Virus record (IMG/VR): IMGVR_UViG_3300028805_000056
Span: 32,001-96,000 of that record
Strand: one strand, 5' to 3'
Length of the DNA stretch: 64,000 nucleotides
DNA from: a virus
Lineage: Duplodnaviria; Caudoviricetes
The first letter of the stretch is position 1. Every line of letters starts with the position of its first letter. Under the pieces are notes generated by a model. It saw only the letters and a list, made by a program, of their open reading frames with translations, was not told where the DNA came from and did not search any database. Made by a program: the position numbers and the translations under genes. Positions 11,151-30,648 of this stretch are shown one piece after another.

Positions 11151-11173
11151 ATAAAACAGTATAATAAAAAATG

Positions 11174-11809
11174 CGGAGGCTGAGGGATTCGAACCCCCGG
11201 GACGCTGTTAACGCCCGCCGGTTTTCCATTACCACACTATGTTACCATAGCCAAACAAATGTGGACTGTTACTTTTGACTGCTTATGCTTTTACATGGCT
11301 CCTTTCAAAAGCTGTCTTTCGGTAATGTTTGTTGTAGTCTGGGACATATTAGTACCATATTGAAATCCTTGCAAGACAATGCCCTTATTATAGCGCTTTT
11401 AAGCAGATTGTTTTCTCCATATTAGTACAATCATTTCGCGGCATTATACGTCATTTCAACTTAGGCATCTCCTCTATGTTCTCTACACATTTATGAATTA
11501 TAATAGGACTCGAACCTATATTTCCGCCAATTACATCTTTACTCATTTCTGAGCCGATGAGTATATAATTCAATTTAGCTCGGTATTATCCTTACACATT
11601 ATTGGTTAGTGTGTAGATTATAATAAAAGTGCTTATTTATGAGATAAGCATCTGATAACGCTTCCCTTAAATCTACTTGGGGCACTTATCTTACTTTTAT
11701 ATTTCTAAGGACTTCCACCGAATTAGGGAGATTCTACTATGGGATTTCTCGCCATAGCACTCGAATTTGTTTCAAGACCGGTGCAATAGACCAACTCTGC
11801 CAAACCTCC
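11174..11809 (-). tRNA. tRNA-Ser(UGA) interrupted by a group I intron (exons 11774-11809 and 11174-11226)
   Basis: Acceptor GGAGGTT/AGCCTCC, G73, long variable arm; spliced anticodon arm CCGGT-CT-T|GA-AA-ACCGG. Confidence 0.9.
11227..11773 (-). ncRNA. Group I intron (IC3-like), 547 nt, no ORF
   Basis: P1 CUUGAA/UUCGAG with U.G at the splice site; P3 ATCTCC/GGAGAT; P/Q/R/S-like elements AATTCGGTGGAA, AATACCGAGC, GTAGAGAACATA, ATATGTCC; terminal G. Confidence 0.88.
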
Positions 11810-12165: not shown

Positions 12166-12226
12166 TGTTTTTCCCCCTCCTTCTTTGGATTCAGAAGTTA
12201 TGAGACCGCCGTCTCATTTTTTTTAG

Positions 12227-12309
12227 AGCCTTCTGTTGGATTCGAACCAACGTGTCCTTACGGATCCACATTACAAGTGTGGCGCAATCGGCCGCTATGC
12301 GAAGAAGGC
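12227..12309 (-). tRNA. tRNA-Thr(UGU) with an atypical long variable arm
   Basis: GCCTTCT/AGAAGGC, U73; CCACA-CT-TGT-AA-TGTGG; extra arm TCC-GTAA-GGA. Confidence 0.85.
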
Positions 12310-29197: not shown

Positions 29198-29767
29198 TTA
29201 TTGGTAATTTTCGTCTTGAATGATACCGAACTTGTGGAAATACCTCAATGGTCTCCATTTATGACCATTAACATAGAAGCCCCATTTATGTCTTGGTCTT
29301 CCCTCGAACATCAATGTCCAAGCACCACCCTTGGGAATAGAAAGATAATGTCTATCTTCTGCTTTTGAGAACCAAATTGAACGGTTCATATGGAAGAAGT
29401 TGTGCCAAGAATTAAAAATTCCTTCAACATAGCATTCTTTTTGATTTATGGTATGGCAAGCCAAGTCATATTTATCAAACTCGGTTTCATTCTTGAATTG
29501 AACCAATTCATTGGGATTCTTATCTGGGTCAATTGGTTTTACGTTCCAATATTTCCCTTTCAGAACAATGCTCAACAAATCAGAACTATGGTCATGAAAG
29601 AACCTGTTATCATCGGATTTAATCCAATGGTGGATTCTCATTGAATAGCCAAAGAAGATGAATGTCCAACGAATAAGGTATGGATTATCCTCATATCCGA
29701 TTTTTTCTTTCCATCTGATTTGGAACTTCTTGAATTGTTTCAGATTTGTGGAACCTTTCATATTCAA
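29198..29767 (-). CDS. Cupin-like phage protein
   Basis: RIHHWIKSDDNRFFHDH...SIVLKGKY...RH...WTL...WGF motif pattern. Confidence 0.55.
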   Translation of the reverse strand: MNMKGSTNLKQFKKFQIRWKEKIGYEDNPYLIRWTFIFFGYSMRIHHWIKSDDNRFFHDHSSDLLSIVLKGKYWNVKPIDPDKNPNELVQFKNETEFDKYDLACHTINQKECYVEGIFNSWHNFFHMNRSIWFSKAEDRHYLSIPKGGAWTLMFEGRPRHKWGFYVNGHKWRPLRYFHKFGIIQDENYQ

Positions 29768-29786: not shown

Positions 29787-29976
29787 TCAACGGGGAAGGA
29801 TTCGAACCCCCATACTTCATTGCCAATACATTGCCCTATAGAATGCTCTTATTGACAATTCCGTGCTGTCTCAGCCCCAACCATGTATTAGGTGTGTCTC
29901 TCCCGTCGTCACGGAATCGTTTCCATCGTCATGGAAACACCTACGATTGTGCTCTTCCTATTTGAGCTACCCGTTG
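29787..29976 (-). ncRNA. 190-nt tRNA-like RNA with a large structured insert replacing the anticodon arm
   Basis: CAACGGG/CCCGTTG-A acceptor; D-arm GCTC/GAGC; T-arm GGGGG-TTCGAAT-CCTTC; ~135-nt internal domain. Confidence 0.7.
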
Positions 29977-29985
29977 TTTATTTTG

Positions 29986-30648
29986 TGCGCAAGTCGGGAC
30001 TCGAACCCGAACGGGCATAATGCCCAGCAGATTTTCCTGCTACTCTATGTTACCATAGCCAAACAATGAGTGATGCTGGACAATAATATTTCTGCATTAT
30101 TTCAGCAGGCACCATTTTAACGTCCTATAGTCTATTGTTTGTTGTAGTCTGGAACATATCATTACCATATTGAAATTCTTCGAAGTAGGAAGCATCAGTT
30201 TTTTTTTAACTTTCTTATATATTCAATCATTATCGAAATAACATGTATTTTCTTACTGAAGTGATATATTACTTTTCTTCCAATTTCAACTTAGGTATCT
30301 CCTCTATGTCCTCTACACATTTATGAGAATCTTTCATCCTTTCTCAAGGGCTATCTTCTTCCATTTTATTGATAGCATCTTCTCAATTTAGCTCGGTATT
30401 ATCCTTACACATTATTGGTTAGTGTTTAATACTTTGGACAAGCAGTCTGATACCAATCACATTTAACTTTCTCTTCTCTATGACTAAGAGTGTGAATCTA
30501 ATATTGAGCCTGATATATTACAACCATATTTTTCTTTGGCAATTAATTAAAAGGACTTCCACCGAATTAGGGAGATTCTACTATGGGATTTCTCGCCATA
30601 GCACTCAATTTAATAAGTCTGCCGCGTCTACCATTCCGCCACAAGCGC
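29986..30648 (-). tRNA. tRNA-Leu(UAA) interrupted by a group I intron (exons 30615-30648 and 29986-30035)
   Basis: Spliced arm GCAGA-CT-T|AA-AA-TCTGC; Leu-type D-arm and variable arm; A73. Confidence 0.88.
30036..30614 (-). ncRNA. Group I intron (IC3-like), 579 nt, no ORF
   Basis: P1 CUUA/UGAG with U.G; core blocks nearly identical to the Ser intron; ends in G. Confidence 0.88.

Follow-up and report, generated by a model that had tools for sequence, protein, structure and literature searches.

A tRNA-Val-shaped gene with two structured inserts and self-complementary hairpin loops lies upstream of a conserved cupin gene in a giant phage

The stretch of DNA analysed here (the window, 64,000 nt) is part of a 148.5-kb record of a giant gut or rumen phage, whose completeness is ~41% according to CheckV. 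Inside a tRNA array on the minus strand the window carries a 190-nt element that runs from 29976 (nt 1) to 29787 (nt 190, which is A73), and a gene for a cupin-fold protein lies just downstream of it. The parts of the element and the gene that follows it are these:

29787-29976, minus strand: whole tRNA-Val-shaped gene, 190 nt; the sole match in the window to covariance model R1 (98 bits)
29970-29976, minus strand: 5′ strand of the acceptor stem, CAACGGG, starting with C1; pairs with 29794-29788; seven of seven pairs covary and 99.6% of cells are paired
29951-29967, minus strand: D arm, GCTC, a 9-nt loop with GG, and GAGC; helix 2, paired in 100% of cells in the family
29945-29949, minus strand: 5′ strand of the anticodon stem, CAATC, followed by G32 and U33 (29944-29943); helix 3, with five of five pairs changed on both sides in the family
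29888-29942, minus strand: insert 1, 55 nt, between U33 and U34; an outer helix and two GACG hairpins; the outer helix (helix 5) covaries
29920-29937, minus strand: GACG hairpin 1, UUUCCAU-GACG-AUGGAAA; loop invariant in 30 of 30 close homologues
29901-29916, minus strand: GACG hairpin 2, CCGU-GACG-ACGG; a second copy of the motif was noted only here and in one homologue (L112)
29883-29887, minus strand: anticodon U34 A35 C36, then A37 and U38, placed by the family alignment of 58 members
29878-29882, minus strand: 3′ strand of the anticodon stem, GGTTG, from the family alignment and covariation
29812-29877, minus strand: variable region, 66 nt; the shortest in the family (others ~97 nt)
29865-29875, minus strand: small hairpin GCUG-AGA-CAGC, counterpart of a family hairpin with GAGAA/GUGAA/AAGAA-type loops
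29828-29846, minus strand: hairpin GCAUU-[CUAUAG]GGC-AAUGU with a 6-nt palindrome at 29841-29836; equivalent loops of homologues are UCUAGA, UCCGGA, UCGCGA, UGUACA, UGCGCA and UUGCAA
29795-29811, minus strand: T arm (helix 9), GGGGG-UUCGAAU-CCUUC; its two G.U pairs, 50-64 and 51-63, are conserved in 42 and 36 members
29788-29794, minus strand: 3′ strand of the acceptor stem, CCCGUUG, then A73 (29787) and a C, from the sequence and the family alignment
29198-29767, minus strand: conserved cupin-fold gene, 189 codons, ~25 nt downstream of the RNA; probable ATG at 29761; matches phrog_4786

The element is a tRNA-Val(UAC) body, anticodon stem and anticodon included, that carries two inserts. The outer helix of insert 1 is UAGGUGU/ACACCUA, and its first U is U33 (29943), which lies just outside the insert coordinates. 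The first 5 nt of the variable region (GGGCU) can act as a normal variable loop, and the remaining ~61 nt constitute insert 2. When both inserts were deleted in silico, the 74-nt sequence that remained was called tRNA-Val(UAC) by ARAGORN. The intact element has the cloverleaf of a canonical tRNA-Val, with acceptor, D, anticodon and T stems all present and covarying, but not its dimensions, since the encoded anticodon loop is 62 nt and the gene 190 nt long, where 7 nt (with U33) and about 73-93 nt would be expected. The default run of ARAGORN did not report it; no Rfam family was assigned to it, either at gathering thresholds or at E values up to 10, and the tRNA model RF00005 misses it. Positions 3-70 form an A-U pair rather than the G3.U70 of a tmRNA, and ARAGORN -m finds no tmRNA. 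The intron mode of ARAGORN proposed a tRNA-Met(CAT) with a 97-nt intron; this reading was set aside because its anticodon stem is mismatched, and the covarying CAATC/GGTTG stem was preferred. The original prediction had recognized the perfect acceptor stem (C1-G72, A73), which is 7 bp long, the D arm and the T arm, and had taken the element for neither a normal tRNA nor a tmRNA, all of which agrees with these results. It had also placed a pseudoknot-capable domain, within an interior of ~135 nt, where the anticodon arm should be, and here it has to be corrected: CAATC pairs with GGTTG (29949-29945 with 29882-29878), this 3′ strand is directly preceded by UAC-A-U (29887-29883), and the interior is made of two separate inserts and the anticodon arm. 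Its description of a tRNA-scaffolded ncRNA comes near to the reading that we prefer below, except that the scaffold is a complete tRNA-Val with anticodon stem and anticodon.

The element is predicted to fold stably (minimum free energy -60.8 kcal/mol, z = -3.6), and its interior holds six perfect 7-mer complement pairs, compared with 0.39 in shuffled sequences (P ~0.001). The four complementarities that had been listed earlier do exist, at nt 34-40/82-88, 39-46/51-58, 60-67/112-119 and 88-94/146-152 of the element. The outer helix of insert 1 is conserved in the family. Two long-range pairings reach 11 bp (ATTCCGTG/CACGGAAT) and 9 bp (AATACAT/ATGTATT) in this copy (P ~0.01), but they are without counterpart in 30 homologues and show no covariation, so that a pseudoknot was rejected as a feature of the family. 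The 11-bp pairing competes with the local CCGU-GACG-ACGG hairpin, a family-conserved motif, and formation of the 9-bp pairing would hide both the anticodon and the 3′ strand of the hairpin that bears the palindrome. Judged from sequence, these pairings would represent at most a lineage-specific alternative fold. This copy is atypical of its family: CUAUAG takes the place of UCUAGA, no other member has so short a domain 2, and the GACG hairpin is duplicated. Some further structural readings were discarded. The geometry does not fit a K-turn in the GACG hairpin, nor a hammerhead or guanidine-II motif, and Rfam has no match to any of these. Domain 2 contains a cis "codon", GUA here and GUU in several relatives, with which the anticodon could pair, but the two do not change in step: the segment is identical in L100 (UAC) and L108 (CAC), and it is absent from L049, L059 and L063.

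Homologues were searched for through the downstream protein, and 37 viral and 80 metagenomic loci were fetched. More than 60 distinct RNA homologues were found in jumbo-phage contigs, just upstream of the cupin gene. When the element itself was compared with phage records by blastn only short T-arm matches were obtained, and two exact-pattern scans of viral contigs returned nothing or already known loci only (one of the patterns was wrong by one G). The pairing statistic covers the arms of the tRNA together with two helices of insert 1, the outer one and the inner hairpin; in these regions 96.8% of cells form standard pairs, as against 76% in shuffles and ~45% with the partners slid, and 28 of the 31 pairs are changed on both sides. 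The anticodon stem is a good example of this, as CAATC/GGTTG is replaced by CAGTC/GACTG, TAGTC/GACTA, CTATT/AATAG or TCACC/GGTGA in other members. In the alignment, read directly, the stem of the small variable-region hairpin likewise differs by member (GCU/AGC, GUC/GAC, GUU/AAC, GGC/GCC). Instead of a unique, non-covarying insertion, which the original prediction had set against its own view, the homologues thus contain inserts that are conserved and that covary. The position of the inserts varies among relatives, which carry them in the anticodon loop, the variable loop, the T stem or the D loop. In a sister sub-family (L002 5828-5976, L042 136-272, L054 1000-1139 and L056 2052-2180) the second insert is located inside the 5′ strand of the T stem and is a single hairpin with a G-UUGCAA-A loop. 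More distant relatives (L016 2714-2793, L017 5920-5999 and L019 2421-2501) have a C1-G72 tRNA-like gene of 80-81 nt before the cupin gene, with an 8-nt anticodon loop (UUUUACGA, UUUAACUG), and one or two tRNA(CUA) genes precede it.

The major identity determinants of valine tRNAs are A73, A35 and C36 (PMC9976931). All three are found in the element and are nearly invariant across the family: A35 and C36 are present in 56 of the 58 aligned members, and A37 in 54, while C1-G72 together with A73 is found in 61 of the 66 members scored. Nearly all full-length members start with C1 and end with G72-A73-C, and position 71 is almost always U. The first anticodon position is free, with A in 46, C in 7, U in 3 and G in 2 of the 58 members, so that all four valine anticodons occur. 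Position 33 is a U in only 3 of the 58 members, U33 being missing in 53, and a relative without insert (L011) also has G33. The element in the window does have U33, and removal of its nt 35-89 would restore a canonical GUUACAU loop; one homologue (L093) carries an uninterrupted GUUACAA anticodon loop. A canonical tRNA-Val gene coexists with the ornate one in two complete or near-complete relatives: in the complete 356-kb relative G001 (loci L130-L147) a canonical tRNA-Val(UAC) lies 3.5 kb from the ornate copy, and the L009 locus also holds both. In the 148.5-kb record (~41% of the genome), which has tRNAs for nearly all other amino acids, no canonical tRNA-Val was found. Taken together, the conservation of A35, C36 and A73, the free N34, the loss of U33 and the coexisting canonical tRNA-Val favour selection for synthetase recognition over selection for decoding. 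As a separate observation, G001 has a tmRNA (tag GNYEYALAA) within its tRNA array and also encodes a tRNA with anticodon CUA (146453-146852 and 253584-253656), which suggests reassignment or suppression of TAG in that phage.

Both inserts are tipped by hairpin loops that are complementary to themselves. In 45 of 66 distinct members GACG is presented on a covarying stem of at least 4 bp (CCAU/AUGG, CCAC/GUGG, CUGC/GUAG, or CCGU/ACGG, the last of these also in L100 and L108), and in the element two such hairpins stand in tandem. In the sub-families that lack GACG, the domain 1 hairpin loop at that position holds a 6-nt palindrome instead (UAGCUA, CUGCAG, UGCGCA, GCAUGC, AGUACU or UGUACA). The insert 2 hairpin presents a purine-flanked 6-nt palindrome, which is UCUAGA in 30 members, CUAUAG in this window and UGUACA, UGCGCA, UUGCAA, UCCGGA or UCGCGA in others, and its two central bases change together (UCUAGA/UCCGGA/UCGCGA and UGUACA/UGCGCA). 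A palindrome presented by a hairpin was found in 27 of 33 low-similarity representatives, compared with a null proportion of 0.33 from dinucleotide shuffles (binomial P = 1.6e-8, the representatives not being fully independent). The G.U pairs found in the stems show that it is the RNA strand, rather than the DNA, that is under selection. In MoMuLV and MoMuSV the SL-C and SL-D hairpins kiss through GACG tetraloops, and HIV-1 has as its dimerisation initiation site an apical loop with a 6-nt palindrome; purine-flanked palindromes of this length are a documented kissing-dimer motif (PMC7357161). In sequence, the element and its relatives have what is expected of kissing-loop elements, that is, self-complementary apical loops on stable stems that are kept by paired changes, and the RNA would thus be predicted to self-associate through kissing loops. 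As far as we can tell, this kissing-loop design is a new observation. The idea that the GACG hairpin is a dispersed mobile element was rejected, because hairpins of this kind with four-bp stems are not enriched in the genome (21 in 148.5 kb, with 14 expected) and only the two copies inside the element match the family motif.

Relatives were also detected in cultured phages, namely Caulobacter phages CcrColossus and CcrPW and Paraglaciecola Antarctic GD virus 1 (GD1), where they lie in stretches without annotation in the records examined. Two of these loci were described as follows:

L149 1689-1815 (MW805361.1 ~113999-114125): GD1 tRNA-Val(GAC)-like gene, 124 nt; no annotated feature
L148 1428-1703 and 1716-1964 (NC_019406.1 ~241461-241997): two tandem tRNA-shaped genes of CcrColossus, 250-276 nt; no annotated feature

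The GD1 gene has a 50-nt insert in the anticodon loop with a GCU-GACG-AGC hairpin, and it directly follows genes for RNA ligase and phosphatase, with a cupin gene downstream of it. The CcrColossus genes resemble tRNA-Phe(GAA), with C1-G72, A73, an encoded CCA and the remnant of a Phe-type AUGAAGA loop with G37; each carries an anticodon-loop insert of 172-200 nt, and they are upstream of a putative rRNA methyltransferase gene and a cupin gene. In both phages, a canonical loop that has U33 would result if the insert were removed, which keeps alive the possibility that the inserts are excised.

In most loci the RNA is encoded 10-210 nt upstream of the cupin gene. The cupin protein has more than 1000 homologue clusters, none of them named, and its mean column identity is 60% in an alignment of 24 sequences. 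An AF2 model of it (pLDDT 83) shows a generic cupin fold (Z ~12), and an invariant cluster of His and Asp residues (H46, H47, D52, D53, H58, D59, H60 and H140) looks like a metal site. The PHROG label of the family is "cysteine dioxygenase". Searches for its function yielded no Pfam match and no match in a PDB sequence search, and the fold searches gave generic small-molecule cupins only, and nothing in the fold points to RNA binding. Between the element and the cupin gene, neither a promoter nor a terminator signal was found. In six loci (L043, L045, L052, L055, L056 and L062) a small ORF with CxxC...CxxC motifs (MKIKCPKC...) lies between the tRNA-like gene and the cupin gene.

Other tRNA genes of the window are unusual as well. 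A tRNA-Leu(UAA) gene located 8 nt upstream of the element (29985-30648, minus strand) has a 579-nt insertion after U34. In tRNA-Leu(UAA), this is the classic site of the cyanobacterial and plastid group I intron. The Rfam group I model does not match the insertion at E values up to 10; short stretches of it match the crAss-like phage cr116_1 and Lak phages. Elsewhere in the window, at 11173-11809 (minus strand), a tRNA-Ser(UGA) with a 547-nt anticodon-loop insertion was detected by the intron mode of ARAGORN, and the tRNA-Thr(UGU) at 12226-12309 (minus strand) is, at 84 nt, unusually long for class I; G001 has a tRNA-Thr of the same length. Genes for RtcB, PF09414, Rnl1, Rnl2 and TROVE/Ro60 proteins were not found in the record, which carries little weight at ~41% completeness, and the complete relatives encode one to four RNA ligases of family PF09414.

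The reading that we prefer, with a probability of about 0.45, is that the element encodes a stable, non-decoding, valine-type tRNA mimic that self-associates. The RNA would be transcribed together with the neighbouring tRNAs (Gln, Met and Leu) and the downstream cupin gene, as suggested by spacers of 8 and ~25 nt and the lack of a terminator; it would then be excised like a tRNA by RNase P and the 3′ tRNA-processing nuclease, for which the intact acceptor, D and T arms speak, and CCA would be added. Charging with valine is probable, given that the bases read by ValRS (A73, A35 and C36) are retained and conserved. The ribosome would most likely not use this RNA, which would retain one structured domain within the anticodon loop, just 5′ of the anticodon, and a second where the variable loop meets the T stem, in a family that as a whole has lost U33. 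The self-complementary tips of the domains, GACG and the 6-nt palindrome, would probably engage in loop-loop kissing with other copies of the RNA, giving dimers or larger assemblies, and the synteny suggests that the product may act with or for the cupin metalloprotein encoded downstream. Such a mimic, at the same somewhat less than even odds, would explain the loss of U33, the free N34, the coexistence of canonical tRNA-Val and the strongly conserved motifs of the inserts. Against it stand the U33 of this very element, whose loop can be restored, and the uninterrupted loop of L093; the U33 loops that GD1 and CcrColossus would regain on removal of their inserts; the lack of a canonical tRNA-Val in this record, which covers ~41% of the genome; the departures of this copy from its family (CUAUAG, shortest domain 2, duplicated GACG hairpin); and a cupin fold that gives no hint of RNA binding. 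A bolder version is only tentatively put forward: the family may be a new class of self-assembling, valine-charged, tRNA-shaped RNA, in which two orthogonal kissing loops build dimers, chains or closed assemblies, and which may serve the adjacent cupin metalloenzyme as substrate, cofactor or scaffold.

The alternative that survives best, although we consider it doubtful, is an interrupted tRNA gene, in which both inserts are removed after transcription, either by nucleases of the phage or host together with an RNA ligase, or by a small ribozyme that has escaped recognition; what is left would be a functional tRNA-Val(UAC), and the released, structured pieces might have their own function. Deletion of the 55-nt and 61-nt inserts does produce a sequence that ARAGORN accepts as tRNA-Val(UAC), with a G32-U33-UAC-A37-U38 loop, and this is the loop that L093 carries uninterrupted, while those of GD1 and CcrColossus become canonical after a single excision. 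No other tRNA-Val was found in the record, two neighbouring tRNAs of the same phage have large introns after U34, the complete relatives have the PF09414 ligases mentioned above (one to four each), in GD1 genes for RNA ligase and phosphatase directly precede the tRNA-like gene, and Lak megaphages are reported to have "enigmatic" tRNA introns (PMC6784885). Other observations argue against removal. The catalytic core of a group I intron (P3-P9) needs more than about 200 nt. At 55 and 61 nt the inserts are far below the size of group I or group II introns, and neither RF00028 nor any other Rfam ribozyme or intron model matches them at E values up to 10. The motif cut in archaeal-type introns, the bulge-helix-bulge, consists of a 3-nt bulge, a 4-bp helix and a 3-nt bulge; here a 7-bp helix abuts the anticodon stem and the junctions, read directly, have no paired 3-nt bulges. 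Two cuts and two ligations would be necessary, at sites that differ between relatives, the RtcB, Rnl1 and Rnl2 genes were not found in this incomplete record, and the canonical tRNA-Val coexists in complete relatives. Furthermore, no excision could restore U33 in 53 of the 58 members. The novel small intron or ribozyme that had been offered as the second option in the original prediction is therefore conceivable but unsupported: Rfam has no ribozyme or intron match, a bulge-helix-bulge is absent, and excision cannot restore U33 in most homologues.

Two further explanations rank low because neither accounts for the conserved structure of the inserts. It is unlikely that the element is mainly a cis-acting processing or expression signal, in which the cuts of RNase P and the 3′ tRNA-processing nuclease set the 5′ end of the cupin mRNA and the RNA is a by-product, in the manner of tRNA punctuation or of the t-elements of plant mitochondria. 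The element does lie ~25 nt ahead of the cupin start codon (10-70 nt in most relatives) with no promoter or terminator signal in between, and even the short, plain tRNA-like genes of L013 and L011 keep the association; but an acceptor/T minihelix alone would suffice for this purpose, the RNA and the cupin gene are kept apart in several relatives by a small ORF or by 150-210 nt, and A35-C36-A37, the invariant GACG, the covarying palindromes and ~115 nt of conserved extra structure would be left unexplained. Least probable of all is that the tRNA-Val gene is in decay and has been invaded by small selfish hairpins, the inserts having no function, since, in spite of the variation of insert position and content among close phages with cupin proteins 85-88% identical and of the atypical features of this copy (duplicated hairpin, shortened domain 2, altered loop motif), compensatory changes keep the tRNA core and the insert helices across many lineages, the loop motifs are invariant or change in pairs, and the GACG hairpin is not scattered over the 148.5 kb, as the counts given above show.

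Several known systems share features with the element. tRNA mimics as such are already known. The "enigmatic" tRNA introns of Lak megaphages (Devoto et al. 2019, PMC6784885) likewise lie in insert-bearing tRNA genes of very large gut Bacteroidota phages, which are missed by standard bacterial tRNA finders and whose inserts cannot be classified by Rfam. The element differs from these in its two inserts with conserved motifs, its fixed C1-G72/A73 and its fixed cupin neighbour, none of which appears in the consulted passages of the Lak description, and blastn against phage records revealed no sequence match of the element to Lak records. The valine tRNA-like structures of plant viruses, such as TYMV TLS-Val, are also viral mimics that keep the identity bases A35 and C36 and the discriminator, and they are not used for decoding (PMC9976931). 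They are, however, located at the 3′ end of an RNA genome and have a pseudoknotted acceptor arm, whereas the element is encoded by a DNA phage as a gene in its own right, its acceptor helix (7 bp) and its D and T arms are normal, and it has additional domains. As in SL-C and SL-D of MoMuLV and MoMuSV (PDB 1F5U), GACG is presented on a short stable stem, and it is doubled in the element as it is in MoMuLV; as in the HIV-1 DIS (PMC7357161), a purine-flanked 6-nt palindrome occupies an apical loop, and compensatory changes preserve its self-complementarity in the family. There is no homology to these retroviral loops and the context is wholly different, the dimerisation of the element being predicted from its sequence. 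ROOL and GOLLD are structured phage ncRNAs found in or beside tRNA islands, and they form RNA-only multimers through kissing loops and A-minor contacts (PMC12286853), but they are 3-4 times larger than the element and are not tRNA-shaped; the Rfam models of both gave no match in the window that passed the gathering threshold. YrlA and other Y RNAs (RF02553), which occur in bacteria and phages, also combine a tRNA-like module with an extra helical domain; YrlA is circularly permuted, ends in a Ro-binding stem and has a loop-closed acceptor, whereas the topology of the element is not permuted. A YrlA match reported by Rfam (25.5 bits, with a threshold of 69) combines one arm from each of two adjacent genes, the T arm of tRNA-Leu and the D arm of the element, and it was discarded as an artefact. 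In the papers searched we found no description of an RNA that combines a full cloverleaf, synthetase identity, two conserved dimerisation-loop domains and a fixed link to one uncharacterised metalloenzyme family (>1000 clusters).

Since cultured carriers exist, retention and excision of the inserts can be distinguished directly at the bench. If the inserts are removed, there would be a bacterial tRNA splicing route independent of both group I introns and the archaeal endonuclease, and this would also explain the "enigmatic introns" of megaphages. If the RNA is instead stable and self-associating, it would be a small and tractable addition to the natural RNA-only assemblies of phages, which have been recognised only recently, and it would point to a non-ribosomal use of charged tRNA during infection. 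Should the reading as a self-assembling tRNA be true, these assemblies would be akin in kind to those of ROOL and GOLLD, but built from tRNA.
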